Shown piece after piece: positions 40,565 to 56,628 of a stretch of DNA of 64,000 bases. Within the stretch, counting starts at the first letter, position 1. Each line of letters starts with the position of its first letter. The translations under genes were made by a program, and so were the position numbers. Source of the stretch: a virus. Taxonomy: Duplodnaviria > Caudoviricetes. Location: positions 4,587 to 68,586 of the IMG/VR virus record IMGVR_UViG_3300014205_002439. One strand, written 5' to 3'. The notes below the pieces were generated by a model. It had not been told where the DNA came from. It was given only the letters and a program-made list of their open reading frames with translations, and searched no databases.

Positions 40565-40759
40565 ATGTACACGCTTCTATTGTTTTTCGGCATCATCCTG
40601 TGGCCTGAAATGGCGTTCTGTGTATTCCTGTTCACACAGGGGTACATTTTTCTTGCCATTGTGGCTGCATTGACCACATTTGGTTCAGGATCACGCTGGG
40701 TTAGCGGCAAGATCAACAATCAAAACACGTCGGACGAATCAAGGAACACCTTGACATGA
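40565..40759 (+). CDS. Small membrane protein
   Basis: Two hydrophobic segments; coupled to the next gene. Confidence 0.5.
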   Translation: MYTLLLFFGIILWPEMAFCVFLFTQGYIFLAIVAALTTFGSGSRWVSGKINNQNTSDESRNTLT

Positions 40760-41289: not shown

Positions 41290-41298
41290 GGAGAGACT

Positions 41299-43134
41299 AT
41301 GAAACGATTCGTGTACGGTCTGTTGATGGTGCTGCTTGCCACCGTCAATCTGAATGCACAGGACAAGCCGTTTTCGGAACAGGTCGGGTCGGTGACGGCT
41401 GGACCTGTTCCCGCTACCGAACCCACTGTGGTTCCGTTTATTACGTGGGGTGGGGACGTTGCCACGTTCCTCGCAAACGGTGGGTTGGAAACCAAGCCGA
41501 ACACGGTTGCTGCGAAGCTGGGTCTCAATCTGAAACTCAAGGCTGGAGACAAGTTCACGGATCAGGTTAAGGACTACGTTTCCGGCAAGTCGCCGTATCT
41601 GCGTGGTACTTTCCAGATGATCGGGCAGGGGGCTGACGTGTTCGGGACGAACCCCGATCTCAAACCTGTTCTCATCCTCCAGATGACGTACTCGGTCGGC
41701 GACCACATGGTCGCTGCGGAAGGGATCGGTAAGCTCAACGATCTGAAGGGTAAGAAGATTGCTCTCCAGCGTGGCGGGCCTCACCTTGCTCTCGTGGACG
41801 ATTCGCTCAAGGCAGCGGGTCTGACGTGGAAGGATATCACTCCGGTTTGGTGTGACGATCTGACCGCTACGGACAACAGCCCGGCGGCAGTCTTTCGTGC
41901 TGGCAAGGCCGATGCAGCTTGCGTGATCTCTCCGGACATGCTCGGCCTGTGCGGTGGACTCGATCAGAAAGGTTCTGGTGCCGAAGGTAGTGTGAAGGGT
42001 AGCCATGTGGTCGTTTCGACGGCTCAAGCCAATCGGTCTATCGCTGACGTTTACGCCGTTCGTAGCGATTACTTCGCCAAGAACCGTGACAAGGTCGAAC
42101 GTTTTGTCGCCATGTACCTCAAGGGTACGAATGATCTTCTGGCTGCGAAGAAAGAGTACAACGACGGTAAGGGAAAGTCGGAAGTCTACATGAATGCTCT
42201 AAAGATGGCTCAGGCCATCTATGGTGAAGCAGTTCTGCCGACGCTCGAAGTCGATGCTCACGGTCTGGTTTCCGATGCAAGTTTTGTAGGACTGCCGGGT
42301 AACGTCTCGTTCTTCGAAGACGCCGGTAATCTCAACGGTTTTGCTGCAAAGCAGAAGAGTACGCTCGATCTTGTGACCAGCATCGGTATTGCCAAGAACC
42401 GGTTCGGTTTTGAACCGGCTCGCCTTGAATACCGCAAGATTGCCACGCTGGCAGGGATCGACTATGTCGCTGCTGCTGCCAGCACTGGTCGTATCAAGGC
42501 TGAAATCGAGTCGTTCTCGGAAGACCTTGCTGACGACGGCAACACCATCGTGAGCTTTGCTATCCCCTTTGAGCCGAATCAGGAAGGTTTCAATCCTGAC
42601 ACTTACGGTATGGAATTCAGCCGTGTTCTTCAGTCGCTCAGCACGTTTGGCAACTCAGTGATCGTGATTCGGGGTCATAGTGACCCCAGCATGACCATCA
42701 AGGCGTTCCTCAAGGCCGGTATGGAAAAGGGTATCTTGACCCGTTCTGGCCGTCTGGAACGTGAAGGTGGTACGGGTTACGAATACTTCCTGCGTGGTCA
42801 GAAGATTGATCTGGCTCAAACGCCGAATCTGATCAACGAAATCCAGAACGGCAATTTTGTCGGAGCTTCGGAAAATCCGAATGAAACGATGACCGCCGCT
42901 CTGAATCTGAGCCTTGTCCGTAGTCAGGTTGTCAAGAAGGCGATTGTTGAATACGCTAAGGTTTCGGGGATCAACCTCGATGCCAGTCAGATTCAGCCGC
43001 AGGGTGTCGGTATCCGTGAGCCGGTTTTCCCGAAGCCGAAGAGCCTCGATGAAGCTCGCAAGAACATGCGAGTGGAATTCCGTCTTGTCAAGGTTCCCGC
43101 AGAAGCCATCAAGCCGAGTGACTTCGATTACTAA
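41299..43134 (+). CDS. ABC substrate-binding protein (NMT1/TauA-like) fused to OmpA-like C-terminal domain
   Basis: Signal peptide; LKGKKIALQRGGPH, DAACVISPD, IADVYAVRSDY; IRGHSD, LSLVRS, KNMRVEF. Confidence 0.75.
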   Translation: MKRFVYGLLMVLLATVNLNAQDKPFSEQVGSVTAGPVPATEPTVVPFITWGGDVATFLANGGLETKPNTVAAKLGLNLKLKAGDKFTDQVKDYVSGKSPYLRGTFQMIGQGADVFGTNPDLKPVLILQMTYSVGDHMVAAEGIGKLNDLKGKKIALQRGGPHLALVDDSLKAAGLTWKDITPVWCDDLTATDNSPAAVFRAGKADAACVISPDMLGLCGGLDQKGSGAEGSVKGSHVVVSTAQANRSIADVYAVRSDYFAKNRDKVERFVAMYLKGTNDLLAAKKEYNDGKGKSEVYMNALKMAQAIYGEAVLPTLEVDAHGLVSDASFVGLPGNVSFFEDAGNLNGFAAKQKSTLDLVTSIGIAKNRFGFEPARLEYRKIATLAGIDYVAAAASTGRIKAEIESFSEDLADDGNTIVSFAIPFEPNQEGFNPDTYGMEFSRVLQSLSTFGNSVIVIRGHSDPSMTIKAFLKAGMEKGILTRSGRLEREGGTGYEYFLRGQKIDLAQTPNLINEIQNGNFVGASENPNETMTAALNLSLVRSQVVKKAIVEYAKVSGINLDASQIQPQGVGIREPVFPKPKSLDEARKNMRVEFRLVKVPAEAIKPSDFDY

Positions 43135-43168
43135 TCGAAACATTCTCAACCTCTAAGGAGCCTTGAAC

Positions 43169-44056
43169 ATGAAACCTTTCCTCGCATGTGTGTTGATGCT
43201 CTTTGCGTCGATCGCTTCGGCGGCTGACGTGAAGAACAACGTGGTGATTCTGTTGGACAATTCTGGCTCGATGAACGAGCAAATGAAGACTGTCCGCCAG
43301 AAGAAGATGGAAGTTGCGAAGCAAGCTCTCACGGAAGCTGTTGGTCAGATTCCCGATGGTACAAATATTGGATTGCTGACTTTCGCTGAGTGGGTTACGC
43401 CTCTGGCTGTTCTGGATCGCCCCAAATTGGTGCAGGGTATTGCTCAATGCAGTGCCAACCCCAATGTAGGGACGCCGCTTGGAACCTACATGAAGCATGG
43501 TGTTGACGCTCTTCTAAAAGAGCGTGAAGCCGCCAACGGTTACGGCACTTACAAGCTTCTTATCGTGACTGACGGTGAACCGACGGCAGAACCGGAAGGT
43601 TTGCTTGATCAACATCTCAAGGATATCTTGGGTCGTGGGATTGTGGTGGAGTGTATCGGCGTCGATATGGCTGCAAATCATAGCCTTTCAACGAAGGTCT
43701 ACTCTTACATGGCTGCGACCGACAAAGCATCGCTTCAGCGGTCTTTGAAGAAGACACTGGCAGAAGTGCCAGTGTCCCAAGACAAAGCTGCTGACAACTC
43801 GGTTTTCGAAGAGATTTCCGGATTGCCAACTGAGACTGTGTCTCAGGTGATCAGCGTTTTGAGTCATGGACAGAATCATCCCATTGGGGAACGGCCCCCG
43901 ACACCGCAGACAATGGACCCACCAACGGATCAAGGTCAAACTTCAGTTATTCCTCCTGCCACTCAGTCGGATGGAAACGGAGTGGCTGCTACACTGCTTT
44001 TGATCTTTGTTGGTGGAGTTATCGTGTTTGTGGGTCTGAAGATCCTGTTGGATTGA
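43169..44056 (+). CDS. vWA-domain membrane-anchored protein
   Basis: Signal peptide; MIDAS LLDNSGSM, GTPLG, IVTDGE; C-terminal TM helix. Confidence 0.88.
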   Translation: MKPFLACVLMLFASIASAADVKNNVVILLDNSGSMNEQMKTVRQKKMEVAKQALTEAVGQIPDGTNIGLLTFAEWVTPLAVLDRPKLVQGIAQCSANPNVGTPLGTYMKHGVDALLKEREAANGYGTYKLLIVTDGEPTAEPEGLLDQHLKDILGRGIVVECIGVDMAANHSLSTKVYSYMAATDKASLQRSLKKTLAEVPVSQDKAADNSVFEEISGLPTETVSQVISVLSHGQNHPIGERPPTPQTMDPPTDQGQTSVIPPATQSDGNGVAATLLLIFVGGVIVFVGLKILLD

Positions 44057-44069
44057 GGAGAATACAGCG

Positions 44070-45629
44070 ATGAGTAAGCAAAAGATTCTGTTGCTTTGTG
44101 GTATATGGATCGGCATCTTTGGCCTTGGCGTGATCGGCTATCGATACATCGTCAAGCCAAGGAGTGATAAGCAGGCTGCTGCGAAGCAGGAAGAAGAACA
44201 GAAACTTGTCTTGGAACAAACCAGTTCTCAGACCAAGTTCGATCATCACCTTACGCTTAATCTTGACTCGTTCAGCGGTTACGCTGTTGTGAGAAGTGAT
44301 GCGTTTCGTGAAGAACTTGCTCGTCGTAAGATTGGCCTTGAACTCGTTGACGACGGGGCCGATTACAATCGGAGACTGGCTGATCTTGAAAGTGGCAAAG
44401 CACAGATGGGTGTGTTTACCATCGATGCTTTGATCAAGGCTTCAGACAAGCTAGGTCGGTTGCCTGCCACGATCCTGTTTCTGATTGACGAATCACGAGG
44501 GGCAGACGCCATGATCGGAGTGTCTCGAACACTGCCGAACATCGATGCCCTGAATGATCCGAACACAAAGTTTGTAGTGGTTCCAGACTCGCCATCCGAG
44601 ACTCTTGCTCGGGTGGTCATGGCGAGTTTCAATCTGGATAGACTCAGTCCCAACCCTTGGGTGTATGCCAATTCGGCGAAGGATATCTATTCGCAGTATC
44701 AGGTTCACCAACCGAACGATAAGAACATTTTTGTTCTATGGGAGCCTTACATTTCCAAAATGTCACAGAACCCGGATTACAAGATCATCGCTGATTCAAG
44801 TAAGTTCCGTGGTTACATTGTGGACGTGATGGTTGTGCAGCGAAGTTTCCTGATCAAAAACCCCAAGGTGGTGCGTGAGGCCACACAGGCTTATTTCACA
44901 GCGGTATTTGAATCGAGCTTGAAGAGCAAGATGTCAGAACTGGTTTTGGAAGATTCCGTTCGTCTCGGGGAGCCTTTGAAACCTGATGAAGTCAAGGGGA
45001 TGGTGGGAACCAATGGTGATAAGCCACCGAAGATTTGGTTCAAAAACATGCGGGAGAATTACAGTCACTTTGGAATTCGTTCTGAAAGTGGCCTCCAGCA
45101 TATTGAAGACATCATCGCCAATATCACTAAGGTTCTGTTGAAGACCAAAGCGATTAAGGTTGATCCGACTGATTCGAAACCAAACCTTCTGTATTACAAG
45201 AACCTCTTGACGGAACTTGCGAATGAGGATTGGCATCCGGGGGCGAGCGAGGAAGGAATTACCGCAGAAGGACATGTACTGACTCTTTCAGAAGAGGATT
45301 GGACTCATCTGGAGACAGTTGGTAAACTGGAGGTTCCGAATCTAGTGTTCGCTCGTGGTACGAGTCGTCTTACAGAAACGAGTCGTGCTGCTTTGACGGA
45401 ACTAGCCGAGAAATTGAAGACCTTTCCACACTATTACGTTTCGGTTCGTGGTGATGCGGATCGTAATGGTGACTTGGAAGCGAATAAGAAACTTGCACTG
45501 ACTCGTGCGGAAGCTGCCAAAGAGTTTCTTACGCAAGCCGGTATCGCCTCGAACAGAATCCGTGTAATTGCGGGTGAACCTTCTGGTGAAACTGTGGTCT
45601 CATTTGTGGTTGGACAGCTTCCCTACTAG
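44070..45629 (+). CDS. ABC substrate-binding protein fused to OmpA-like domain, N-terminal membrane anchor
   Basis: LDSFSGY, IDESRGADAM, VLWEPY, IVDVMVV; VRGDAD, NKKLALTRAEA. Confidence 0.78.
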   Translation: MSKQKILLLCGIWIGIFGLGVIGYRYIVKPRSDKQAAAKQEEEQKLVLEQTSSQTKFDHHLTLNLDSFSGYAVVRSDAFREELARRKIGLELVDDGADYNRRLADLESGKAQMGVFTIDALIKASDKLGRLPATILFLIDESRGADAMIGVSRTLPNIDALNDPNTKFVVVPDSPSETLARVVMASFNLDRLSPNPWVYANSAKDIYSQYQVHQPNDKNIFVLWEPYISKMSQNPDYKIIADSSKFRGYIVDVMVVQRSFLIKNPKVVREATQAYFTAVFESSLKSKMSELVLEDSVRLGEPLKPDEVKGMVGTNGDKPPKIWFKNMRENYSHFGIRSESGLQHIEDIIANITKVLLKTKAIKVDPTDSKPNLLYYKNLLTELANEDWHPGASEEGITAEGHVLTLSEEDWTHLETVGKLEVPNLVFARGTSRLTETSRAALTELAEKLKTFPHYYVSVRGDADRNGDLEANKKLALTRAEAAKEFLTQAGIASNRIRVIAGEPSGETVVSFVVGQLPY

Positions 45630-45639
45630 GAGTAGATGA

Positions 45640-46137
45640 ATGTCTCAGTTTGGTATGATGCCTCCGTTTTTCCCGATGATGATGTACCCGGAGCATAGTT
45701 ATGCTCCTCGGCAACAAACTCCAGATATTATTGTTCCGGCTCGGGTCAACAAGGCGATGGACTTCCTACAGTTCCTCGCACAAAAGCGTCGAAAAGGGGC
45801 GGCGGTTGGAGAACATCAGATTGAAGTTCTGGAACCTGATGTTTTGACGGATGAAGAAACCGCTACGCAAGATTCTGCTCTTCAAATGCTGGCTCGCTAT
45901 TTCGATGGCAAACTCCAGCCTGATGAGTGGGAAAACGTGCGTTTCCAAGCACTGAAGAAACGTGCCAAGGAAGGTACGCTTGATGCCCCTTTGGGCGGGC
46001 AGATTATGCCTTGCCCTAACTGTGCTGGCCGCAATCCGAAATGTGCTTTGTGTTTTGGGCGTGGTGAATTGCTGATCCAGCCTGCTCCTGACATTGACGA
46101 TGAGGGATACGATGACGACGGAGACGAAGAAGATTAA
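45640..46137 (+). CDS. Hypothetical protein with CxxC-CxxCxGxG zinc finger
   Basis: CPNCAG...CALCFGRG. Confidence 0.6.
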   Translation: MSQFGMMPPFFPMMMYPEHSYAPRQQTPDIIVPARVNKAMDFLQFLAQKRRKGAAVGEHQIEVLEPDVLTDEETATQDSALQMLARYFDGKLQPDEWENVRFQALKKRAKEGTLDAPLGGQIMPCPNCAGRNPKCALCFGRGELLIQPAPDIDDEGYDDDGDEED

Positions 46138-46879
46138 GCATTGGCTTATCACCAGCGGCGGCACCAAAGTTCCCATCGACAAGGTTCGTGATATTACGAA
46201 CATGTCATCGGGAACTTTTGGTTCCAAACTTGCAAAAGTTGCACTCGACGCTGGCGACCGAGTTACGTTCTTGTATGCCAAGCACAGTAAGCATCCGTTC
46301 TTGTGGACGACCGATGTCCGGTGTCTGGCAAAGATCGGTCACCATTCTCTTCATGAAATGGAAGAATGGGGTGCTCGGAATGCTGATCGATTTAAGGAAG
46401 TTCCCTACGTCACTTTCGATGACTACAAATCCGAACTATCGGATTTGTTGTATCGAAACGTGTACGATGGTCTGATCCTTGCCGCTGCGGTGAGCGATTA
46501 TGGTGTTACTCCGGTTGATGGTAAGATCCGATCAACTGCCGATCTGACACTTAACTTGTTCCCGTACCCTAAGATTATCTCTTCGATCAAAGAGAATAAC
46601 CCGGATCTATTTCTTGTGGGTTTCAAGTTGCTTGTGGACTCGACCCCTGAACAACTTTACGAAGCTGTGGAAAGCAGCTTTGATAAGAATGGTTGTGATA
46701 TGGTGGTCGGAAATGACCTTACGGAAATCCGTCAAGGGAAGCATCGTCTTTCGATTTTCCGTAAGACGGACAAAGACACAATTCGCTGGCAAGTTTTGAC
46801 AGAAGACAAGTGGAATCCTTATGATTTGGCGTCGGGATTATTTCGAGAGATCAACGACGCTCACGATCAACGTAAATAA
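46094..46879 (+). CDS. coaB: Phosphopantothenate-cysteine ligase
   Basis: ITSGGTKVPIDKVRDITNMSSGTFG, AAAVSDY, LVGFKL, MVVGND. Confidence 0.88.
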   Translation: MTMRDTMTTETKKIKHWLITSGGTKVPIDKVRDITNMSSGTFGSKLAKVALDAGDRVTFLYAKHSKHPFLWTTDVRCLAKIGHHSLHEMEEWGARNADRFKEVPYVTFDDYKSELSDLLYRNVYDGLILAAAVSDYGVTPVDGKIRSTADLTLNLFPYPKIISSIKENNPDLFLVGFKLLVDSTPEQLYEAVESSFDKNGCDMVVGNDLTEIRQGKHRLSIFRKTDKDTIRWQVLTEDKWNPYDLASGLFREINDAHDQRK

Positions 46880-46890
46880 GGGATTATGCA

Positions 46891-47973
46891 ATGAATATAC
46901 TGCTGGGATTGACTGGAAGTGTGGCGAGTACGCTTGCCGAGAAATTGGTGACTTCACTTAAAGAAATTGGTGATGTCCGAGTCGTCATGACGAATTCTGC
47001 AAAACACTTCGTCCGTATTCCAGTTCTAGCCAGTATGTGTGATCACGTTCTCGATGATGACGTTGAGTGGTGGTATTGGAGATCCAATAAAGAAGTCATG
47101 CACATTGATCTTCGGCGTTGGGCGGATGTTCTTGTACTTGCACCTCTCAGTGCCAACACGCTTGCTAAAGCAGCAAATGGTATCTGTGATAATCTCGTAA
47201 CTTCAGTTCTGAGAGCTTGGGATACAAACCGTCCTGTGGTCATTGCTCCGGCGATGAATACATTCATGTGGGAGCATCCTCTTACGGCTCGTCATCTGGA
47301 AGATTTTTCCAAAATCTATAGAACCAAGATGATTCCTCCTGTCGTCAAGACTTTGGTCTGTAAAGACACAGGAGTAGGTGCAATGGGTCGTATAGAAGAC
47401 ATTGTGGATGCAGTGCTCAAAGCTACTCAATGGCTACATCCACTAATCACTGCTAACGGGATTCCTTGTGGGAATCATCCGGGGGCCTTTGGTTTCCAAA
47501 GAAAGCATGATATCCACACTGGCGTGGATCTTTACACAGATGATGGACAATCTGTGCATGCAGTGGAGGATGGCACGGTCATTCTGATTGAAAAGTTCAC
47601 AGGAGCTTCTCTTGGAACGCCTTGGTGGAATGAAACCTATGCTGTGATGGTCGAAGGGATGTCCGGTGTTGTATGCTACGGAGAGATCAAGCCGTCGGAT
47701 GAGATTGGACCCGGCTCAAAAGTCCATCGTGGACAACAACTCGGCGTAGTGGCGGCGGTTTTGCCGGAGGGTAAAGATCGACCAGATATTCCCGGTCACT
47801 CACGAGCAATGCTTCACGTTGAACTCTTTGAACACGGCACGACGAAGCTGGCTTCGCCTTGGACCGTGCGAGAAGAGAAACCGTTCGGATTACTTGATCC
47901 GACCCCCTTGCTGCTACGTTCCTGCGTTTGCAAGGAGTCAATGAAAACGGTATTGGAAATGCCGAAGGAGTAA
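46891..47973 (+). CDS. coaC: Phosphopantothenoylcysteine decarboxylase fused to M23-peptidase-like domain
   Basis: GLTGSVA, MHIDLRRWAD, APLSANTLAKAANGICDNL, PAMNTFMW, LVCKDTGVG; then HTGVDLY, AVEDGTV, MLHVEL. Confidence 0.85.
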   Translation: MNILLGLTGSVASTLAEKLVTSLKEIGDVRVVMTNSAKHFVRIPVLASMCDHVLDDDVEWWYWRSNKEVMHIDLRRWADVLVLAPLSANTLAKAANGICDNLVTSVLRAWDTNRPVVIAPAMNTFMWEHPLTARHLEDFSKIYRTKMIPPVVKTLVCKDTGVGAMGRIEDIVDAVLKATQWLHPLITANGIPCGNHPGAFGFQRKHDIHTGVDLYTDDGQSVHAVEDGTVILIEKFTGASLGTPWWNETYAVMVEGMSGVVCYGEIKPSDEIGPGSKVHRGQQLGVVAAVLPEGKDRPDIPGHSRAMLHVELFEHGTTKLASPWTVREEKPFGLLDPTPLLLRSCVCKESMKTVLEMPKE

Positions 47974-47976
47974 AAC

Positions 47977-48705
47977 GTGAGCATCCGCAAAAAGATCATG
48001 ATAGAACTATTGTGTCCACCGTCTGCGACTTTGTCGGTAACGACTGGACTCTGCCTATTCATGCTCGCTTGGGGGCTAAATTTGTGGGGAGGTTTCCTCA
48101 CGGTTCTTGGTTGTGTCGGTTTGATGGTGGGTGTTGGTATCGCTGCCACGAATCTCGTTCTTCGTTACGATCAGACCATCAACAGGGTCGTTGAGGAGGA
48201 TCGTCAACGGACTGAACAAGAACGACGTGCGAAATTGGATGATCTCGACCAACGCTTGGTTGAAGATCGTGACAAGCGAGATCAGACGTATCTGCGTCAG
48301 CTACGCAAGATGCATGAGATCCTACACGAAGATATCAGAGCAAAGAAGGTTTCCATCGGACCGGAAATGTTGAACCGTCTGGAGCGAATTTTTCTAGCAA
48401 CGATTGTCTCGTTGGAAGACAACTACAAACTTTGGCAATCCGCCCGCAAACTTCCATCTGCTTCTCAGGCAAAAACCGACCTGTTAGAGAAGCGTGAGGC
48501 TATTCTTGTCGAAGTCGAGAAGAGTGTAGATTTTTTCTCGAAGTGTGTTGTCGAACTTCAAACGACCACTGCTGGAAACAGCGACGAACTCGCTACGCTA
48601 CGGGATGAGACGGCAATTCAATTGGACGCCGCTCGCCGTGCGAAGGAAATGCTCGCTGATCTGGATGGTATCGAACGTCGCCGAGATTTTTCGGAATACG
48701 AGTGA
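47977..48705 (+). CDS. Membrane-anchored coiled-coil protein
   Basis: Two N-terminal TM helices, then long amphipathic helices. Confidence 0.65.
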   Translation: MSIRKKIMIELLCPPSATLSVTTGLCLFMLAWGLNLWGGFLTVLGCVGLMVGVGIAATNLVLRYDQTINRVVEEDRQRTEQERRAKLDDLDQRLVEDRDKRDQTYLRQLRKMHEILHEDIRAKKVSIGPEMLNRLERIFLATIVSLEDNYKLWQSARKLPSASQAKTDLLEKREAILVEVEKSVDFFSKCVVELQTTTAGNSDELATLRDETAIQLDAARRAKEMLADLDGIERRRDFSEYE

Positions 48706-48767
48706 CAAATCTGGAAGAGTTCGTATAACTCTTCTGCTCAAATGTCCCCCACACAAGGAGAGAAAAG

Positions 48768-49565
48768 ATGTTTCGTTTCGTCCGTGCGATTTATTACTAC
48801 TTCACCGGTACGGTCAACTCTTGGGCTGATGCGTGGAGTTTCAATCCCGCAGTGATGGCAGCGACCTATGATACTGCCATCAACAACTCCAGCACTCGCT
48901 ACACGACTGTGCGAAATGCTGTCGCAAAGCTGATCAACATTGAATCTGAACGAACTTCGGAAGTGAACGCTCTTCATGAGCGTGCCAAGAAACTTCAGCA
49001 CATCAAGAACGCCGCTTTCGGTAAGGCGAAGGATTTTGCTGCTGCTCTGACGGCTCAGGGCAAGACCGAAGAAGAGATCAAGAAGGAAGCAGAGTACGTT
49101 CGGCATATGGGAGCGTTCACCGACGCCTCGAACTCCCTTAAGGAAATTGTCGAATCGATCAATTCCAAGGAAAAGGAAATTGTCGATTTCAAGAGCCAAA
49201 TTGCCAGCTACAAGGTTCAGCTTCAGTCGATGCAGCGTTCTTCCGCTGATCTCCGTCAGGAGAAGGAAGAAGCTCTTGCTGACGTGGCAATTGCTCAGGA
49301 AATTCAGGCTGTTAACGACGTGCTGAGCGGCGTTGCCGAGAATACCATCGACAAGGATCTCAAGAGTGCTCGTGAGGCTCGCAAGACGGCTAAGAGCAAG
49401 GCAAAGATCACCGCTGAACTCGCCGGGAACGATGCCGCTGTTGCGGAAGCCGAGTACCTCAACTACTCGAAGACGAACGAATCGGCATCGGAATTCGAAA
49501 GCCTGATCTTCGCAAACAAGACGAATCCGGAAGCGGACCTCAACCCTGCCAAGCTGCCGGAATAA
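48768..49565 (+). CDS. PspA/IM30-like coiled-coil protein
   Basis: Amphipathic N-terminus (MFRFVRAIYYYF), heptad-rich body, EARKTAKSKAKITAEL, ASEFESLI C-terminal helix; size fits the family. Confidence 0.6.
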   Translation: MFRFVRAIYYYFTGTVNSWADAWSFNPAVMAATYDTAINNSSTRYTTVRNAVAKLINIESERTSEVNALHERAKKLQHIKNAAFGKAKDFAAALTAQGKTEEEIKKEAEYVRHMGAFTDASNSLKEIVESINSKEKEIVDFKSQIASYKVQLQSMQRSSADLRQEKEEALADVAIAQEIQAVNDVLSGVAENTIDKDLKSAREARKTAKSKAKITAELAGNDAAVAEAEYLNYSKTNESASEFESLIFANKTNPEADLNPAKLPE

Positions 49566-49613
49566 TCCTGTTCCACAGTACAACTTTTGGAAACCCCTTT
49601 TTAGGAGAGTCGC

Positions 49614-50786
49614 ATGAAACGTTTTCTGCTGTGTTGTGCAATGTTGATGGGTCTGTACGGATGCAATCCGCCTCAGACCACCTCGCCCGTCACTGGTGCT
49701 CCGGTCACGGCCAAGGACAGCAAGCTGCCTGTCTTTACCCTCGCTTGGTCGGAATACCCATCGTGGTCAACGTTCGGCGTGGCCGACATGGAAGGGATTC
49801 TGAAGGGCAAGGAAGGCGAAGTCTCTGCCCTTGAGCAGAAGTGGGGCGTTGATATCGTCCTCACGGAAGCGACCTACGATGCCTGCATCCAGTATTACGG
49901 TGCGAAGACCGTCGATGCAGCATGTCTGACGAACATGGACTGCCTCAGTCCTGCCATCGGTCGTCCAACGACTGCAATCCTGCCGACGAGTACGAGTTTC
50001 GGTGCCGATGCAGTCGTTGCGGTGGATATTGCGGAAGTGCAGAACCTCAAGGGTCATGCGGTCTACGGCCTTGAGAAGTCCGTCAGCGAGTACGTCTTTG
50101 TCCGTGGTCTTCAGGAACTCGGTGAAAATCCGGCGGATTACAAGTTCGCTCAGATGGACCCTGCTGCCGCCGCAACGGCCCTCCAGACCAACAGTCCGAA
50201 CGTCAAAGCGATCTGCGTCTGGAACCCGTTCAAGATGCAGAGTGTCGAAACTCGTCCCGGTGCCAAGGTCATCTTCGACTCGACCAAGATTCCGGGTGAG
50301 ATCATCGACATGGTTGTTGTCGGCGATGACTCGCTCAAGCGTCCGGGTGGTAAGGAGTTCGCTGGCTGCGTCTGCGAAGCTTACTACGCAGTCTGTAGTC
50401 GAATGAACGATTCGGCAACTCGCAACAAGACGCTTGTTGATCTCGGATCGAAGTTCTCGAACCTGTCGGCTGAGCAGATGGCTGTTGTCTGCAAAGAGAC
50501 TCAGTTCTACGATACTCCAGCCAAGGGAGTCGAGGTTTACACTTCGCCTGATCTGCCGAAGATTATGGATCGGGTTGTCGGGTTCTGTGTCGAAAAGCAG
50601 ATCGTTGACAAGAAGCCGATCGTGGGTTATCCGTCCACGAACCTCACTGTCGAAAGCGATCTCAAGTTCGATCCTCAGTACATGCAGAACTTGACACCGA
50701 AGGTGACTGCTTCCGAGACGGACAACGCAACGACTCTTGTCGATATCGATCCGACCCTCACTCCGGGTTGGGTTGACCCTCGGTAA
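49614..50786 (+). CDS. ABC substrate-binding lipoprotein (NMT1/TauA-like)
   Basis: Lipobox LYGC; WSEYPSW, STSFGADAVV, CVWNPF, GEIIDMVVV. Confidence 0.8.
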   Translation: MKRFLLCCAMLMGLYGCNPPQTTSPVTGAPVTAKDSKLPVFTLAWSEYPSWSTFGVADMEGILKGKEGEVSALEQKWGVDIVLTEATYDACIQYYGAKTVDAACLTNMDCLSPAIGRPTTAILPTSTSFGADAVVAVDIAEVQNLKGHAVYGLEKSVSEYVFVRGLQELGENPADYKFAQMDPAAAATALQTNSPNVKAICVWNPFKMQSVETRPGAKVIFDSTKIPGEIIDMVVVGDDSLKRPGGKEFAGCVCEAYYAVCSRMNDSATRNKTLVDLGSKFSNLSAEQMAVVCKETQFYDTPAKGVEVYTSPDLPKIMDRVVGFCVEKQIVDKKPIVGYPSTNLTVESDLKFDPQYMQNLTPKVTASETDNATTLVDIDPTLTPGWVDPR

Positions 50787-50812
50787 GTTCCTCTGTGTAG
50801 TGTCGTGAGTCC

Positions 50813-50846
50813 AATCCCCGGTGTTAAATCCACCGGGGATTTTTTT
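50813..50846 (+). terminator. Intrinsic terminator
   Basis: AATCCCCGGTG-ttaaatc-CACCGGGGATT plus T-run. Confidence 0.85.
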
Positions 50847-50859
50847 GAGTGGTGGTTAA

Positions 50860-51387
50860 ATGCTTTCTTGCAGTATCCCCAAACAATACGCTCTCGTCAT
50901 CGACACCTCCAAGAGCTTCTACTTGGGTGTCAGTTATGACTGGAATATCTTGTTAAACCAAGCCTTCTCTATTCAGGAGAAACTTGATTTGTTTGGATGT
51001 GACCAAATTGAATTGGAAGGTGAATCAACGCCGGGTTGGTTCAACAACGGCTTCAAGGACTATCAGGACGGACAAGAACTAGAAGCCTTCGAGAACAAGA
51101 GATCAAAGCTCATCGAACGTGCTAACATGTTGACCGTGGGTCTCGTGAACCCTGCAACGCTTGAAGAACGAAGGGTAGAGATTCTCAACAAGGCAAACGA
51201 ACCGCTTCAAAAATTCCCATCAATTCTTTCTGGTAGACTAAACATGGTTCGGATGCCGACGGAAGAAGAGATTGAACTCATTATCGAACAGACCAAGCAA
51301 TCCTTGGCCTCGCAAAAGATCGATATGATTGGGTGGCGGTTAGTGGAACTCATTTCGTCTGTGCTCTATGAATGGAGAGTGTCATGA
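50860..51387 (+). CDS. Hypothetical protein
   Basis: ORF track. Confidence 0.55.
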   Translation: MLSCSIPKQYALVIDTSKSFYLGVSYDWNILLNQAFSIQEKLDLFGCDQIELEGESTPGWFNNGFKDYQDGQELEAFENKRSKLIERANMLTVGLVNPATLEERRVEILNKANEPLQKFPSILSGRLNMVRMPTEEEIELIIEQTKQSLASQKIDMIGWRLVELISSVLYEWRVS

Positions 51388-52187
51388 TTCGCCAACCGGT
51401 TTCCATGAAGCGAAAGATGATTCTCGGAGCGGCTTCGATCTTGTTCATGTTGGCATTCTACTCGTATCTGTCATGGCGACAGTATCAGTTGAATCCAAAG
51501 AACACGATTATGCCATCGCTGCTTCAGATCATTCACACAACCACCAAGTTGGTAACTCCAGACTCGAACGGCAAAATCTGGCTGTTACAGGATTCGATTG
51601 CCACTTTTTCTCGACTAGGCATCGGGATGTTTTTTGGCGTAACGATCTCCTGTGTCATTGGTATTGGGATGGGTTGCTTTCGTAGTATGGAAGCCTTTTT
51701 TGAACCATCTTTAACATTTCTGACACGGTTGCCAGCAACCGCTATGTTGGCTGTGTTTCTGATTCTGGTCGGTCACGGCGAAACAATGTTTGCAACGATG
51801 ATTGCGTTCGGTGTGATCCCCACACTCACGATGGCGATCTTCAATGCAGCAAAGTTTGACGTTCATGATGAGTCTGTCTACAAGGCGTACACTATCGGGG
51901 CCTCGACTCCAGAAGCTATCTGGAATGTCGTTACTCAGCAAATCCTCCCTCGAATCATTGAGTCTGTGCGACTCCAAGTCGGACCTGCGATGGTGCTTCT
52001 GCTCGCTGCTGAGTTTAGCTTGGGAGACGTGGGGTTTGGGTATCGTCTACGAATCCAAGGATCACGACTTCATATGGACGTGATCTACAACTATCTGATC
52101 ATTCTTGGGGCGTGGGGTTTCTTGATCGACTACGCTCTTCTGAAAACACGCAACCTCGTGTCGCCGTGGTTTGCTCGAAACAATTGA
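51384..52187 (+). CDS. ABC transporter permease (SsuC/TauC type)
   Basis: LTRLPATAM, YKAYTIGAS (EAA loop), LPRIIESVR, LAAEF...GFGYRL. Confidence 0.9.
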   Translation: MIRQPVSMKRKMILGAASILFMLAFYSYLSWRQYQLNPKNTIMPSLLQIIHTTTKLVTPDSNGKIWLLQDSIATFSRLGIGMFFGVTISCVIGIGMGCFRSMEAFFEPSLTFLTRLPATAMLAVFLILVGHGETMFATMIAFGVIPTLTMAIFNAAKFDVHDESVYKAYTIGASTPEAIWNVVTQQILPRIIESVRLQVGPAMVLLLAAEFSLGDVGFGYRLRIQGSRLHMDVIYNYLIILGAWGFLIDYALLKTRNLVSPWFARNN

Positions 52188-52196
52188 GGTGATTCA

Positions 52197-53090
52197 ATGA
52201 CGCTTCTCAAGATCGATGAAGTGAACCATTGGTTTGGTTCCAAGGATCGTTTTAACCCAAAGGCGAAACGGGTTCTACACGATATCAACCTCGATATCGC
52301 ACAGGGTCAGTTTGTCGCATTGGTTGGGCCGTCTGGATGTGGCAAGAGCACGCTCCTGCGTTCTATCCTTGGGACTCATCCCCCAAAACAGGGAGAAGTT
52401 TGGGCGGATAGTTGTCGTATGATCCGTCCAAACCGACATGTCGGAATCGTCTATCAGAATTATTCTCTGTACGATTTTCTGACTGCCGAAGAGAACATTG
52501 CCTTTGGCTTGATGCTTGACCAGACGAATATTCTGCAACGAGCGTTCATGCCTTGGTATTGGTGGCCTCTTCGGAAAAAGCACATGACGCAAGCCAAGGA
52601 GTTCTTGGCGAAGTTAGACCTTGAGCGTGCAATTGGTTGTTATCCCGCCGATCTTTCGGGCGGTATGAGACAAAGAGTCGCTATCGCTCAGGCTCTCATT
52701 ATGCAGCCGAAGGTTCTTCTGCTAGACGAGCCTTTTGGAGCATTGGACGAAGGAACTCGTGAAGACCTTCAGAAGATGGTTCTCCAGCTTCGAATCGACA
52801 ATATCTCCAGTCAAACCCCGACCACTATTATTCTTGTGACACACGAATTGAACGAAGCATTCTATCTGTGTGATAGAGTGGTTGGCCTCACACAGTATTG
52901 GACTTGTCCTGAAACAGGCATGTCAGGTGCTACGCATGGAGCAACGATCTGTTACGACAAGGCGTCGGATATCTTCCGTCCGACTGATCCTCGTGATTTT
53001 GAGCGATTCGTTCACTTGAAAGAAGAGATTCGACGAGTCATATTTGAGGGTGACGTTACTGTCAACCCAAGGACTCATGTCGTTTTTTGA
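52197..53090 (+). CDS. ABC transporter ATP-binding protein (SsuB/TauB type)
   Basis: GPSGCGKST, YQNYSL, LSGGMRQR, LLLDEPFGALD, VTH. Confidence 0.95.
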   Translation: MTLLKIDEVNHWFGSKDRFNPKAKRVLHDINLDIAQGQFVALVGPSGCGKSTLLRSILGTHPPKQGEVWADSCRMIRPNRHVGIVYQNYSLYDFLTAEENIAFGLMLDQTNILQRAFMPWYWWPLRKKHMTQAKEFLAKLDLERAIGCYPADLSGGMRQRVAIAQALIMQPKVLLLDEPFGALDEGTREDLQKMVLQLRIDNISSQTPTTIILVTHELNEAFYLCDRVVGLTQYWTCPETGMSGATHGATICYDKASDIFRPTDPRDFERFVHLKEEIRRVIFEGDVTVNPRTHVVF

Positions 53091-53097
53091 GGTGACT

Positions 53098-53577
53098 ATG
53101 TCTGACGATGATATCGGTTCAATGTACCGAATGTTGAATGAAGTGCGGCGTGTGGAGGGGGAGGATCGAAGATCATTCAACTCCCGTAAGTACCATGCCG
53201 CTGCTGCAAAGGCTCAGGACTACGGTCTAAAGCTTTTACAGCATTCTGACGTTCATTACACCTTGACGCTGGATAAGGCTGGAAAGAAGTCAACGTGGCT
53301 TCTGAACATCTATCCCGGAAACCAAAGATTGTATTGGGATCGACAGTATCTCAAGCCGCCTTGGCTCAGTATTTCTGACATGCGGGATTGGACTCTGTTC
53401 GACGTAGTCGATGCAGCGATCTTCGCTTGTGGTCTAAAGCCGAAGACTCCTGTTGCAATTCCTGTGTCGGATAACGATATTCGTGTTCGAGCCTACTATC
53501 TGTGGCTTGATGCCGGGTGTCCTGAAGGTACTGGCGAAGATTTTTGGTTGAAAGCTGAAAAGCTCTCAAGGAGGTAG
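53098..53577 (+). CDS. Hypothetical protein with C-terminal DUF2934-like motif
   Basis: DIRVRAYYLWLDAGCPEGTGEDFWLKAE. Confidence 0.65.
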   Translation: MSDDDIGSMYRMLNEVRRVEGEDRRSFNSRKYHAAAAKAQDYGLKLLQHSDVHYTLTLDKAGKKSTWLLNIYPGNQRLYWDRQYLKPPWLSISDMRDWTLFDVVDAAIFACGLKPKTPVAIPVSDNDIRVRAYYLWLDAGCPEGTGEDFWLKAEKLSRR

Positions 53578-53579
53578 AA

Positions 53580-54512
53580 GTGATTGTCATCATCATGGGG
53601 TACAACGCCGCAGGCAAAACCACACTCGTCAAGAAGTACGTCGATGACGGCTTCTATCGGGTCAATCGGGATGAGCTTGGAGGACGTTTGAAGGATCTGC
53701 ATGAGTACGTTGTTGCGGCACACAAAGAAGGTCATACCAAATTTGTACTCGACAACACCTACCGCAATGTTGAGGCTCGTCGCAAGATCATTGAGACGGC
53801 TAAGACTCTCGGTATGCCGATTCACTGTGTATGGCTCGACACCTCCTTCGAGGATGCACAGTTCAATGCTTGTACCCGTATGGTGAGACAGACCGGTATT
53901 CTGTACGGCCCGGCTGAGTTCAAGAAGACGACTGATCCGAATCTCTTTCCGCCGGTCGCCTTGTTTGGTTATCGGAAGGAGTTCGAGAAGCCGACAATGG
54001 CTGAGGGATTTGACTCAATTGAGAAAATCCCATTTGTCAGAGTCAAAGATCCTGCGTATAAGAACAAGGCTTTGATTCTGGATCTTGATGGGACTGTTCG
54101 GAATTCAACGGGGCCAGAACCCTACCCTTTGACTCCGAACCATATCGAAATCCTGCCCGGTCGGAGTGAGCTAATCCAGCAGTACCGAGACAAAGGGTAC
54201 ATCATCGCAGGGGTGTCCAATCAAAGTGGTGTTGCCAAGAAGAAATTGACCCTTGCCGACGTGGATCTCTGTATCAAACGGACCTGCGAACTGTTGAAAC
54301 AAGAGATCGATGTTTTGTATTGCCCGCATCAAGTTCCGCCTGTGTCTTGCTATTGTCGCAAGCCACATCCGGGACTTGGCGTGGTTTTGATTGAGAAATA
54401 CAAACTCGATGCTGAACAGTGTATTTTTGTCGGCGATCAAACCACCGATGCAACTTTTGCAGAGCGGTGTGGATTTCAATACCAGCATCCTGATCAATTT
54501 TTTGGAGGTTGA
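53580..54512 (+). CDS. P-loop kinase fused to HAD-IIIA phosphatase (PNKP/GmhB-like)
   Basis: GYNAAGKT, VNRDEL, VLDNT; DLDGT, VSNQSG, CPH...CYCRKP, FVGD. Confidence 0.88.
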   Translation: MIVIIMGYNAAGKTTLVKKYVDDGFYRVNRDELGGRLKDLHEYVVAAHKEGHTKFVLDNTYRNVEARRKIIETAKTLGMPIHCVWLDTSFEDAQFNACTRMVRQTGILYGPAEFKKTTDPNLFPPVALFGYRKEFEKPTMAEGFDSIEKIPFVRVKDPAYKNKALILDLDGTVRNSTGPEPYPLTPNHIEILPGRSELIQQYRDKGYIIAGVSNQSGVAKKKLTLADVDLCIKRTCELLKQEIDVLYCPHQVPPVSCYCRKPHPGLGVVLIEKYKLDAEQCIFVGDQTTDATFAERCGFQYQHPDQFFGG

Positions 54513-54514
54513 AC

Positions 54515-54952
54515 ATGTTCCTTGTCGAAGTCGGCTTCATGCACTATGGCCCAAAGAGTCAGGAAGATGGGATCAAGGAACTCATCATCACTGGCAGTAT
54601 GGAGCAGGCGGTTGCTTATATCGATAAGGAGTATTTGTTCAACAATTTGGAAAACTATGTTGGACCTGATCCGGAAGCTGAGGGTGAATACTTCTCACCC
54701 TGCAATGCTTGGTGGGATAAAAATCCTCACAAGAAAGACGAGGCCCTAAACAGAGGGTTGACTTTAAGTGGTTACGGAGATGTCCAAGGATCGTATAAGG
54801 AAATTTGTCTTTGGTGGGAAGGCGATGACTGGAAAGATCCTGAAGACTGCTACTACGGCGTCACTCAGTACAGTTGGAGAAATTACCAAGAGATCAGCGA
54901 AGAGGATGCCGCTGTTCTCATTCGTCTCGGACTTGCAAAGGATATTCGGTGA
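54515..54952 (+). CDS. Hypothetical protein
   Basis: GGAGG RBS. Confidence 0.55.
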   Translation: MFLVEVGFMHYGPKSQEDGIKELIITGSMEQAVAYIDKEYLFNNLENYVGPDPEAEGEYFSPCNAWWDKNPHKKDEALNRGLTLSGYGDVQGSYKEICLWWEGDDWKDPEDCYYGVTQYSWRNYQEISEEDAAVLIRLGLAKDIR

Positions 54953-56625
54953 TGAGCTTCTACTCCAAACTGCGTCAGATTATCAACAAGAACCAATCCC
55001 GTTCTGTGATTGTGTCGGGGAACATTTATGATTTGTTCTTCGATGGCACGAAATACGTGCCGCTCGTTGACTTCCTGAAGCAAAAGACGTTTGTTCAGAA
55101 GAGCGAAGGAACTCGTGGAGTGACGCAAGTTGTCTACGAAGTCAACCGTCCTATCACGATCATCGGCGATCAACAGGAATTGATTGATACGTGGAATAAA
55201 CTTCGGCCCGGCGATGATTATAATCGCCTGCGTATGGAGTCGTTCTCCAATTCGATGGTGGCCCTCGAACTTCTGCGGCAGTTCACTGTTGCGGCCAATA
55301 CCTTCAAGATGAAAAATGATCTGATCATTATCATTGAAGGTGCTCACATGCTTATCCCAACAGAAGACCTTGCGAGGATGCAGTTCGCCGACCGTAAACG
55401 TTTGGCGATTATGCATGACTGGTTCTCTGATCCAGAATTTGTCAACGGTACAAATTCTGTATTGCTGCTTGCTGAATCTCGCAGTCAGCTTCATCCAATG
55501 ATTTCCAGTCTTCCGCAAGTTCTTTCTGTGGAAGTTCCCTTTCCTGATTTAGAGACTCGGGAACACTTTATCAAGCATACTTCTGGTCGTGAAGAAGGAA
55601 CGCCTATTGATCTCGGGGTTCAAACGGCTGGTCTATCGTTACACGCTCTACGTCAGATTCTCTGTGAGCCAGAAATCACGAGAGATGTAATCAACAACAA
55701 GGTGGAAGAGTTCATCTGTGCTCAGCTTGGAGAGGACGTTGTTGAGTTCAAACGTCCTACTCACAAGCTGGATGATGTGATGGGTTTTCGGAAGCTGAAA
55801 GAGTTCATCCGAACGGAACTTATTCCTCGTTGCATGGCAACAGATGATTCCTCGCTCTCCGGGGCGGCGATTGCTGGGCCAATTGGTGGAGGAAAGACTT
55901 ACATCATGGAAGCTCTGGCGTCTGAACTGGATATGCCAGTGCTGGTTCTCAAGAATCTTCGTAGTCAGTGGTATGGGCAGACTGACGTTAAGCTCGAAAA
56001 GCTGAAAATGGTTTTGACGGCTCTCGTTAAGGTCATGATGTTCGTTGACGAAGCTGACACGCAGTTCGGTGGTGTTGGTGGTGAAACACATGAAACAGAG
56101 CGTCGATTGACCGGCAAGATTCAGGGGATGATGAGTGATCCCAAGCTGCGAGGTAAAGTGGTTTGGCTGCTTATGACGGCTCGTATCGAACGTCTGTCTC
56201 CGGATATTCGTCGCCCCGGTCGAGCAGGGGATTTGATCATCCCGATTCTTGATCCAGAAGACGAAGATCGTAAGGAATTCATCGAATGGGTTTTGAAGGA
56301 TATTCCGCACCAAGATAGTGTAGGAATGGATCGCTTTGATGCTCATACTCGGGACTATTCTTCGGCGTCGTTTGCTGCTCTGCGAAGTCGTCTAAAGGCG
56401 TCCAAATGCCAAACTTTGGAAGATGCCGTCAAGATCGCTGAGGACATTATCCCAAGTGATATTGCCTCTGAACGGCGTTACCAAACACTTCAGGCTCTTT
56501 TGAACTGCACTAGAAAGTCCCTACTCCCGAACGGTGGTATTGGTAAGCACGGTGAGTCTCTGATCTCGACTCGTAGTGAATGGTCAAGAGAGCTTCGACA
56601 ATTGGAGGCGGCTAAACATACCTAA
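54952..56625 (+). CDS. AAA+ ATPase (degenerate N-terminal module plus active C-terminal module)
   Basis: GPIGGGKT, FVDEAD, MTARIERLSPDIRRPGR. Confidence 0.85.
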   Translation: MSFYSKLRQIINKNQSRSVIVSGNIYDLFFDGTKYVPLVDFLKQKTFVQKSEGTRGVTQVVYEVNRPITIIGDQQELIDTWNKLRPGDDYNRLRMESFSNSMVALELLRQFTVAANTFKMKNDLIIIIEGAHMLIPTEDLARMQFADRKRLAIMHDWFSDPEFVNGTNSVLLLAESRSQLHPMISSLPQVLSVEVPFPDLETREHFIKHTSGREEGTPIDLGVQTAGLSLHALRQILCEPEITRDVINNKVEEFICAQLGEDVVEFKRPTHKLDDVMGFRKLKEFIRTELIPRCMATDDSSLSGAAIAGPIGGGKTYIMEALASELDMPVLVLKNLRSQWYGQTDVKLEKLKMVLTALVKVMMFVDEADTQFGGVGGETHETERRLTGKIQGMMSDPKLRGKVVWLLMTARIERLSPDIRRPGRAGDLIIPILDPEDEDRKEFIEWVLKDIPHQDSVGMDRFDAHTRDYSSASFAALRSRLKASKCQTLEDAVKIAEDIIPSDIASERRYQTLQALLNCTRKSLLPNGGIGKHGESLISTRSEWSRELRQLEAAKHT

Positions 56626-56628
56626 TGT

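Follow-up and report, generated by a model that had tools for sequence, protein, structure and literature searches.

Genes of the region

The window, that is, the whole stretch of 64,000 nucleotides analysed here, belongs to a viral record of IMG/VR that is 68.6 kb long and is rated 12% complete, so that the whole genome would measure about 570 kb. The region of interest (positions 41299-56625) carries nine genes of an envelope module, interleaved with other phage genes. The earlier note on this DNA had listed three binding proteins, with OmpA fusions among them, a vWA protein, a membrane-anchored coiled-coil protein, a PspA-like protein, a permease, an ABC ATPase and an AAA+ ATPase. Profile and topology checks bear this list out: every protein named is present, and all are co-oriented on the + strand.

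Genes 1 to 3 encode periplasmic or peptidoglycan-tethered proteins. The product of gene 1 (41299-43134) is a secreted protein of 611 residues, in which a signal peptide and an SsuA/NMT1-like binding domain (PF09084, 39.5 bits) precede a C-terminal OmpA-like domain that an insert interrupts. This last domain was seen with the family profile, which matches SsuA as well as Omp38 (residues 418-465, E = 1.6e-3) and YiaD (residues 531-591, E = 0.13), and it makes a weaker case than that of gene 3. Gene 2 (43163-44056) encodes a periplasmic vWA protein of 297 residues (PF00092, 45.7 bits for a cut-off of 23.8), with a signal peptide, an intact MIDAS DxSxS motif (DNSGS, residues 32-36) and a C-terminal transmembrane anchor (residues 278-296). 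The 519-residue product of gene 3 (44070-45629) is anchored in the inner membrane by an N-terminal transmembrane helix (residues 6-24); its binding-protein-like domain (residues 86-286, similar to TIGR03427 and taurine-binding proteins) is fused to an OmpA peptidoglycan-binding domain (PF00691, 53.4 bits for a cut-off of 27.2) that carries the conserved Asp/Arg peptidoglycan-contact motif, GDADRNGD...NKKLALTRA.

Gene 4 (47977-48705) encodes a membrane protein of 242 residues, modelled by AF2 (pLDDT 81.7) as a transmembrane hairpin followed by a cytoplasmic helical domain, and belonging to a family of 868 clusters at 50% identity. Searches for a specific match, whether of fold or of family, gave none: a profile search for Snf7 homology gave no match, VIA on the model returned generic helical bundles, PF04012 matched 3 of 27 family members weakly (E >= 0.017), and hhalign of this family against that of the PspA-like protein gave a probability of 1.4%. 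A hit to Rv2743c/PspM in Atlas (score 0.87) is taken as a lead only. The 242-residue protein is likely to be the membrane partner of the product of gene 5 (48768-49565), a putative, divergent PspA/ESCRT-III-like coiled-coil protein of 265 residues. The phage protein itself does not match PF04012 at E <= 1 (cut-off 33.9 bits), and the PspA assignment is suggested at the level of the family, where PF04012 matches 16 of 27 members (best E = 1e-5) and the family profile is co-linear with Vipp1/PspA chains (E about 0.3-0.5). The AF2 model, with helices at 2-12, 27-96, 108-186, 189-237 and 244-250 and a pLDDT above 90 over the hairpin, has the PspA-type architecture of a short N-terminal helix, a long alpha1/alpha2-3 hairpin, alpha4 and alpha5. 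Its VIA matches to PspA (4whe, Z 11.8, rmsd 2.8, 124 residues aligned) and Vipp1 (8qfv, Z 11.6) are equalled by other long coiled coils, and are not specific for PspA.

Genes 6 to 8 provide a permease, an ATPase and a binding protein, that is, all the parts of a type I ABC importer of the NitT/TauT family. The lipoprotein substrate-binding protein (49614-50786, 390 residues, SsuA family, lipobox LYGC) is probably the cognate one; the permease is of the TauC/SsuC type (51372-52187; PF00528, 37.6 bits), and the ABC ATPase (52197-53090; PF00005, 115.8 bits) displays Walker A (GPSGCGKS), signature (LSGGM) and Walker B (VLLLDE) motifs. No equivalog-level match names the solute, all scores being far below the cut-offs (TIGR03427, 166.6 bits for 333.9; TauC, 66.9 bits for 342); the solute may therefore differ from those of known NitT/TauT importers.

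Gene 9 encodes a classical AAA ATPase (PF00004, 55.3 bits). Alignment with bacterial homologues places its real start at 54952 rather than at the opening of the reading frame (54874), which gives a protein of 557 residues (54952-56625). Walker A (GPIGGGKT), Walker B (MMFVDE) and, in the second region of homology with its arginine fingers, RRPGR are invariant across 16 homologues, and the nearest solved relatives are VAT/Cdc48/p97 (E = 7e-24). The N-terminal 313 residues are strongly conserved, and show no Pfam match, no solved-structure match and no AAA signal.

Phage genes split the module at several points, all on the same strand. The insertion at 45640-47973 comprises a 165-residue ORF, CoaB (46094-46879) and a CoaC/M23-like fusion (46891-47973), recognised by PF04127, PF02441 and, weakly, PF01551; that at 50860-51387 is a 175-residue ORF without a family match; and that at 53044-54952 encodes a DUF2934 protein (PF11154), a polynucleotide kinase/HAD phosphatase (53580-54512; PF13671 and PF08645) and a 147-residue ORF. 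None of them has a match in the bacterial loci described below (tblastn, 80 planctomycete loci). Elsewhere in the window, and unlinked to the module, lies a gene for HldE, an enzyme of ADP-heptose synthesis, whose first named bacterial relative is a planctomycete.

A conserved operon of Planctomycetota

Searching 80 planctomycete loci with the phage proteins (tblastn) revealed a bacterial operon in the order AAA ATPase, 611-residue protein, vWA protein, binding-protein/OmpA fusion, 242-residue protein, 265-residue protein, binding protein, permease and ABC ATPase. Along most of its length, the phage 611-residue protein shares 44 to 54% identity with the gene product at the same position in 48 loci, and the AAA ATPase is 46 to 57% identical to that of the first gene in 19 loci. 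Homologues of the vWA protein were found in 54 loci, of the 390-residue binding protein in 69, and of the permease and ABC ATPase in 43 each; the 242-residue protein has its homologue directly 3' of the OmpA gene in 60. The binding-protein/OmpA fusion has more than 600 full-length homologues, and its loci come from 305 species, 80 of 80 among the matches listed being Planctomycetota. When all ORFs of 39 full-length loci were clustered, the same nine families, and no others, proved to be conserved: the set in the phage is exactly that of the bacterial operon, and the grouping is not due to chance. The co-occurrence elsewhere on which the earlier note had made its proposal depend is thus found: numerous genomes of Planctomycetota have the genes in one operon.

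About 300 species of Planctomycetota, mostly Pirellulales, hold the operon. It is present in about 5 to 10% of the sampled genomes of the phylum, and is therefore accessory rather than essential. In three genomes holding it, no canonical PspA was found with PF04012. We also considered the FtsZl1/vWA/OmpA membrane-remodelling operon described by Makarova and Koonin (2010), which was ruled out: no FtsZ/tubulin family match was obtained on any gene of the region or among conserved neighbours in the 39 loci, so that the FtsZ-like GTPase gene is missing.

Probable capture and retention in huge phages

Contigs of related huge phages from other samples, at least four in number, carry the nine genes together as well. 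The same interleaved arrangement is found in these relatives, with 50 to 65% protein identity and proteins on contigs of 387 to 664 kb, and the region is syntenic in the relatives designated L003 (protein on a 622-kb contig), L084 and L085. The insertion containing coaB and coaC is kept in L003, and the polynucleotide kinase is conserved in phage relatives. In the tree of the binding-protein/OmpA fusion, phage copies form one clade (SH-aLRT 97-98) nested among Pirellulales, and the trees of the AAA ATPase and of the 390-residue binding protein agree with it. All nine phage ORFs are intact, with their Walker, signature, MIDAS and OmpA motifs. A published 595-kb phage has the module without the AAA gene, so that this ATPase may be dispensable.

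Could the genes be passive cargo or an artefact, that is, bacterial DNA inserted recently, a chimeric assembly or a functionless set in decay? The GC content of the module (0.503) is slightly above the mean of the window (0.467), and several genes are split in L084. However, in L084 a kinase gene that belongs to the phage itself is split as well, which suggests indels introduced in assembly, and the GC content of the module follows that of each phage. The source run, which is a DNA run and the only one that contains the stretch, was also assembled independently in Logan, and this yielded a 49-kb contig that spans 38500-57687, across both borders of the module, with even depth, so that the chimeric insert envisaged in the earlier note failed this test. 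Given, in addition, the recurrence of the interleaved arrangement in other samples and the single deep clade of phage copies, we regard this explanation as extremely improbable.

The long residence that had been proposed from the interleaving is supported by the single phage clade and its 50 to 65% internal identity, by the drift of GC content to each phage's own value, and by phage-only insertions that L003 also has. On balance we think it probable that a complete nine-gene envelope operon of the Pirellulales type was copied into a phage, that this capture happened long ago in an ancestor of the huge-phage clade, and that the clade has retained the operon under selection. This reading is built on the gene identities, the predicted topology, the operon origin, the conservation among phages and the intact catalytic motifs, all of which were observed. 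That a megaphage lineage kept all nine genes through divergence, insertions and rearrangement is strong comparative evidence that they act together and confer a fitness benefit during infection.

Possible functions of the module

The best reading of the nine genes is an old module of host origin, kept by selection, that would maintain or remodel the membrane in conjunction with solute import. On the cytoplasmic face, the PspA-like protein would polymerise on the inner membrane, the 242-residue partner, with its two transmembrane helices, would recruit or anchor it, and the AAA ATPase would recycle it, on the model of ESCRT-III and Vps4. In the periplasm, the two binding-protein/OmpA proteins and the vWA protein may tie the site to peptidoglycan, while the lipoprotein, permease and ABC ATPase would import a small solute of the NitT/TauT class. 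By expressing its own full set, the phage could keep the cytoplasmic membrane of its host intact, energised and competent for import throughout a lengthy infection, whatever the state of host gene expression. The idea, already present in the earlier note, that the module does more than take up nutrients agrees with the published inference for this class of operons (PMC11237479, section 18); its role in infection is what we infer here.

Alternatively, the module may be mainly an auxiliary set for nutrient uptake, in which the importer and its extra binding proteins feed a specific solute to the infected cell, and the PspA-like, AAA and vWA proteins are passengers of the operon. Permease, ATPase and lipoprotein do make up a full type I importer whose motifs are intact, the binding protein is similar to the urea-carboxylase-associated family TIGR03427, and the phage LR756511.1 retains the transporter with no detectable AAA gene. 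However, six of the nine conserved bacterial genes do not encode transporter subunits, and the nine genes are intact across phages that are about 50% identical, despite ample opportunity to lose passengers through insertions and rearrangements, so that we hold this account to be unlikely. Superinfection exclusion or envelope masking, whereby the vWA and peptidoglycan-tethered proteins would block adsorption or injection by other phages, might draw on the four of nine proteins that are periplasmic or envelope-anchored, and HldE could alter surface sugars. Yet what the phage carries is a chromosomal host operon in unmodified form, in none of 39 neighbourhoods was that operon linked to defence loci, and none of its products appears to resemble a known exclusion protein, which makes such a role very unlikely. 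A bolder proposal extends the remodelling function: the module would be a bacterial and phage counterpart of ESCRT-III and Vps4, driven by ATP, nucleated by the membrane partner, positioned by the peptidoglycan tethers, and reshaping the unusually invaginated cytoplasmic membrane of planctomycetes rather than merely repairing leaks. One possible use would be the construction or upkeep of a membrane-bounded zone of replication or assembly; we rate this proposal as quite unlikely.

Comparison with known systems

Within the preferred reading, capture of a host operon for membrane maintenance and import, the closest precedent is a class of operons already known from the comparative genomics of Ravi et al. 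2024 (PMC11237479, section 18 and supplement), where PspA, SIG+PBPB+OmpA, permease, ABC ATPase, SIG+TM+Snf7 and inactive-AAA+AAA proteins are described together, as in OGG56892.1 (Candidatus Handelsmanbacteria) and AKJ06548.1 (Archangium), and are read as a system that remodels membranes at the expense of ATP, in connection with solute transport. Shared with the present module are the PspA-like protein, the membrane-anchored helical partner, the classical AAA ATPase, the ABC ATPase and permease and the signal-anchored binding-protein/OmpA fusion, as well as the putative logic, in which remodelling goes together with solute transport and with contact to peptidoglycan. The Planctomycetota version also includes the periplasmic vWA protein, a further binding-protein/OmpA-like protein and a lipoprotein binding protein encoded separately; moreover, the copy described here belongs to a phage, whose own genes interrupt it. 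For two features of the published operons, a Snf7-like partner and a dead-AAA N-domain, no sequence signal was obtained here.

Yuan and Chen (2026 preprint, bioRxiv 10.64898/2026.10.24.761521) report that, in huge phages, 15 pspA loci have a complete ABC transporter in their vicinity. Their loci likewise place a PspA-like gene beside membrane-protein genes, but their study makes no mention of an AAA ATPase, OmpA fusions, a vWA protein, a planctomycete source or a host operon.

The classical Psp, Lia and Vipp1 systems (PspFABC of E. coli, LiaIH of B. subtilis, PspA-PspM of M. tuberculosis) share with the module a PspA-type hairpin, a small membrane partner and a role in inner-membrane integrity, presumed for the phage module. 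The latter differs by the absence of PspB, PspC, PspF and Toastrack, by an ATPase that is a classical AAA rather than a sigma-54 activator, and by remote sequence similarity. With ESCRT-III/Vps4 (CdvB/CdvC in archaea) it has in common a helical hairpin of the polymer-forming type, polymerisation being presumed here, and an AAA ATPase of the classical clade (CdvC scores 36 bits against it); however, the phage ATPase resembles VAT/Cdc48/p97 more closely than Vps4, and no MIT domain was detected. As for NitT/TauT importers (SsuABC, TauABC and the urea-carboxylase-associated TIGR03427), the module draws its permease, ATPase and binding proteins from the same families, but ordinary importers do not have the two further binding-protein-like domains fused to peptidoglycan anchors.

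According to a recent review (PMC7619361), bacteria appear to lack a Vps4-like ATPase that regulates PspA polymers; judging from gene content, this class of operons seems to pair a PspA-like protein with a classical AAA ATPase. Giant phages, for their part, can carry a whole putative membrane-maintenance machine. Phage and bacterial copies together offer many compact, diverged variants for biochemical and structural work, and genetics is possible, since several cultured Pirellulales strains carry the operon. Finally, the module and HldE both suggest Planctomycetota as the hosts of these very large phages.

A planctomycete operon in a phage genome

All the phage proteins of the region (41299-56625) were compared with the planctomycete loci. 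We found that nine of them are encoded, in bacteria, by a single operon whose genes have a fixed order: AAA ATPase, 611-aa protein, vWA protein, 519-aa SBP/OmpA protein, 242-aa membrane protein, PspA-like protein, lipoprotein SBP, permease and ABC ATPase (as in the planctomycete loci L006, L025, L040 and L060). Some others, among them two from Lacipirellulaceae, have a divergent ABC ATPase gene, located upstream of the AAA gene. When all ORFs from 39 full-length loci were clustered without supervision, the conserved families proved to be these and no others. Relatives of the 519-aa protein were found in 305 species (one genome per species), and all 80 of those listed belong to Planctomycetota, mostly Pirellulales. 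The operon itself is carried by only 5 to 10% of the sampled genomes; cultured carriers include Bremerella cremea JCM 17758, Aeoliella straminimaris ICT_H6.2, Botrimarina colliarenosi Pla108 and the strains SH139 and SH449.

The IMG/VR virus record, of which the window covers bases 4587-68586, is 68,586 bp long, and its completeness of 12% (CheckV) points to a genome of roughly 570 kb. Outside the module, the window encodes a DnaB-like helicase, a UvsX-like recombinase, a single-strand DNA-binding protein, a DNA polymerase fragment and a thymidylate synthase, a replication gene set typical of phage. A landfill metagenome is the sole public run containing the stretch, and no RNA run containing it was found among the public runs checked. 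In an independent Logan assembly of the source run, positions 38500-57687 fall within a single 49-kb contig of even depth, with one mismatch. The earlier note had proposed one long-resident envelope system, naming a chimeric insert or a lack of co-occurrence as what would speak against it. Every protein that it named is present (ORF listing, Pfam, NCBIfam and a simple hydropathy scan), and, within the reach of the tools used, a chimera is excluded by the contiguity of the Logan contig and the recurrence of the arrangement in other samples. The nine genes also occur together both in planctomycete loci and in other phage contigs.

Capture, rearrangement and maintenance

Phage relatives were found through protein search, which returned more than 600 full-length relatives of the 519-aa protein at about 50% identity, and through exact look-ups of the closest homologues; scanning viral contigs with single proteins (519-aa and 390-aa) gave no match. 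More phage contigs share the neighborhood, with DNA polymerase A upstream, an AAA_33 kinase immediately before the module, and a polynucleotide kinase and the AAA gene 3' of it. For the related huge phages, the L003 protein is on a 622-kb contig, and the proteins of L084 and L085 were found also on contigs of 652 kb and 664 kb, respectively.

The AAA gene is relocated, from the head of the operon in bacteria to its tail in the phage. No counterpart exists in the bacterial loci for the 165-aa ORF, CoaB, the CoaC/M23-like fusion, the 175-aa ORF, DUF2934, the polynucleotide kinase/phosphatase, the 147-aa ORF or DUF3431; it follows that these remaining phage genes were inserted into the operon that was captured. 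An M23-peptidase-like domain accompanies the module in phages (no signal peptide; Pfam 28.0 bits, slightly below the cut-off). In the window (46891-47973) and in L003 (12825-13895) this domain is joined to CoaC, and in L085 (19212-19841) it forms a free-standing 209-aa gene directly before the AAA gene.

Quick trees were calculated, with SH-aLRT as branch support. In that of the SBP/OmpA protein, one clade (support 97-98), nested among Pirellulales sequences, unites the four verified phage copies with all 16 nearest metagenome matches, and phage copies are grouped likewise in the trees of the AAA ATPase and of the 390-aa binding protein. Identity inside the phage clade goes down to about 50%, and the phage branches are long. 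The GC content of the module tracks that of each phage, from 0.415 to 0.618 over related loci; in the window it is 0.503, for 0.467 in the window as a whole and 0.552 in the bacterial operons. Divergence within the clade, long branches and phage-following GC are marks of an old capture maintained by selection. None of the nine ORFs is disrupted, and their catalytic motifs are conserved. The suggestion of one long-resident envelope system is supported.

In L084, the genes for the vWA protein, the PspA-like protein, the ABC ATPase and the polynucleotide kinase are each split over two frames (9121-9839, 13013-13809, 17420-18294 and 21091-21533). Assembly indels are a likelier cause than decay, because the phage's own kinase is also hit.

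Components of the module

Three proteins, of 611, 519 and 390 aa, contain binding domains of the NMT1/SsuA/TauA type. In the 519-aa protein this domain is accompanied by a membrane anchor at the N-terminus and a clear OmpA domain, while the 611-aa protein has a signal peptide and, according to its family profile, both halves of an OmpA-like domain with an insert between them. A lipobox is present in the 390-aa protein. The MIDAS motif of the vWA protein is intact, and this protein also has a signal peptide and a membrane helix at its C-terminus. The permease is of TauC/SsuC type and the ATPase of NitT/TauT type, with the full set of ABC motifs.

The last gene of the module, ending at 56625, encodes a classical AAA ATPase. 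Its long ORF opens at 54874, 26 codons ahead of the start suggested by alignment with 15 bacterial homologues, and the gene probably starts at the ATG at 54952, which overlaps the stop codon of the 147-aa ORF before it. For the N-terminal half of the protein there was neither a Pfam match nor an AAA signal. Residues 128-476 are matched by phrog_8638 (568 positions), and both binding-protein/OmpA proteins of the window (41299-45629) by phrog_25518 (526 positions), two PHROG families with no assigned function. Related genes are therefore already in deposited phage genomes, unannotated.

The assignment of the 265-aa protein to the PspA type stands at the level of the family and of helix order, but the phage protein itself has no PspA match in Pfam. 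PF04012 is matched by 16 of 27 family members (best E-value 1e-5), and the profile of the family can be aligned over its whole length to Vipp1/PspA chains, with weak E-values. In the AlphaFold model (pLDDT 78, above 90 over the hairpin) the helices follow the PspA-type order. Structural comparison (VIA) places PspA and Vipp1 near the top (Z 11.6-11.8), among the best matches, but other long coiled coils score equally, so that this comparison is not discriminating; a Foldseek search of the PDB returned nothing at E ≤ 0.001. The family ends in a conserved acidic-hydrophobic tail, of the form DEFDxLIGL ... IPE, with a terminal (K/R)(I/L)PE, a candidate docking motif for the AAA ATPase. Canonical PspA was detected by PF04012 in none of three planctomycete genomes with the operon (those holding loci L040, L079 and L052), for 9 of 14 control genomes, and the divergent protein may be the sole member of the superfamily in these three.

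The putative 242-aa partner gave nothing specific by Pfam, PDB profile search, VIA-wide search or hhalign against the PspA-like family, and shows no Snf7 or PspA signal. Among 1.84 billion representatives, the best 150 matches to its profile are close family members only. The one lead to its identity comes from a language model, in which it resembles Rv2743c/PspM (0.87).

Relation to known systems

This class of operon has been described before. Bacterial PspA genes, exemplified by Handelsmanbacteria and Archangium, are reported by Ravi et al. 2024 (PMC11237479, section 18, Text S2.2, Table S3) to have five co-occurring components: a protein in which an inactive classical AAA domain precedes a second such domain, a membrane-anchored divergent Snf7, an ABC ATPase, a permease and a signal-anchored PBPB+OmpA protein. 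They propose ATP-dependent membrane remodelling tied to the transport of solutes and to contact with peptidoglycan. This core is shared by the version in planctomycetes and phages, which has three further components: the vWA protein, another binding-protein/OmpA-like protein and a lipoprotein binding protein encoded separately. Neither the Snf7 call for the 242-aa partner nor an inactive N-terminal AAA is confirmed in it. The module is thus a phage-borne variant of a bacterial operon class known from comparative genomics. In huge phages, a preprint (October 2026, 10.64898/2026.10.24.761521) counts 189 pspA genes, 15 of them adjoining a complete ABC transporter, and mentions no AAA ATPase, OmpA fusions, vWA protein or planctomycete operon. 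The AAA partner is the most interesting part, because a 2025 review (PMC7619361) reports that a Vps4-like ATPase is apparently absent from bacterial PspA systems.

Other systems were considered and rejected: FtsZl1/vWA/OmpA operons, since the FtsZ-like gene is missing; MoxR-vWA pairs, since the ATPase belongs to the classical AAA type rather than to MoxR; and the proteobacterial sortase system of PdsO and its vWA target, with scores of 17 and 34 bits, far under the cut-offs, and no sortase.

Possible role during infection

By predicted topology, the PspA-like protein and the AAA and ABC ATPases are cytoplasmic, the 242-aa protein and the permease lie in the inner membrane, the vWA and 519-aa proteins are anchored there with periplasmic domains, and the 611-aa protein and the lipoprotein are periplasmic. 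For the role of the module during infection, the simplest model that we infer is a fixed site, spanning the envelope, with two activities; from it, the two OmpA-type domains would reach peptidoglycan. In one activity, the 242-aa partner would anchor a PspA-type polymer that stabilises or reshapes the inner membrane, and the AAA ATPase would recycle this polymer. In the other, the adjoining ABC importer would take up a solute of the NitT/TauT class, for which sulfonates, taurine, nitrate, bicarbonate, urea and guanidine are candidates. A phage with its own full set would be independent of host expression of an operon that 5 to 10% of sampled genomes carry, and could keep the membrane sealed and energised during a presumably long infection.

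Three other roles are less well supported. The module could serve pure nutrient uptake, using the importer; it could exclude other phages; or it could be passive cargo.

A second clue to a planctomycete host comes from HldE (ADP-heptose synthesis), encoded on the minus strand at 2705-4084 and also present in the phage relatives of the module: its first named bacterial relative, at 54% identity, is a Planctomycetes MAG. For published landfill megaphages, which have been placed in the Mahaphages, the predicted hosts are Bacteroidetes (PMC12607003).

A possible second capture

LR756511.1 is a 595-kb uncultured phage record, of which the locus studied covers 294938-336461. Its module, at about 17291-25841 of the locus, is contiguous and free of insertions, with no detectable AAA gene. 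The nearest relative of its SBP/OmpA protein is from a Thermoguttaceae MAG (57%), and the phage protein falls outside the clade containing the window; this phage stands apart from the others in the SBP/OmpA and 390-aa binding protein trees. Its ABC ATPase joins the other phages in the ATPase tree, on a long branch. The LR756511.1 copy is possibly a second, separate capture.
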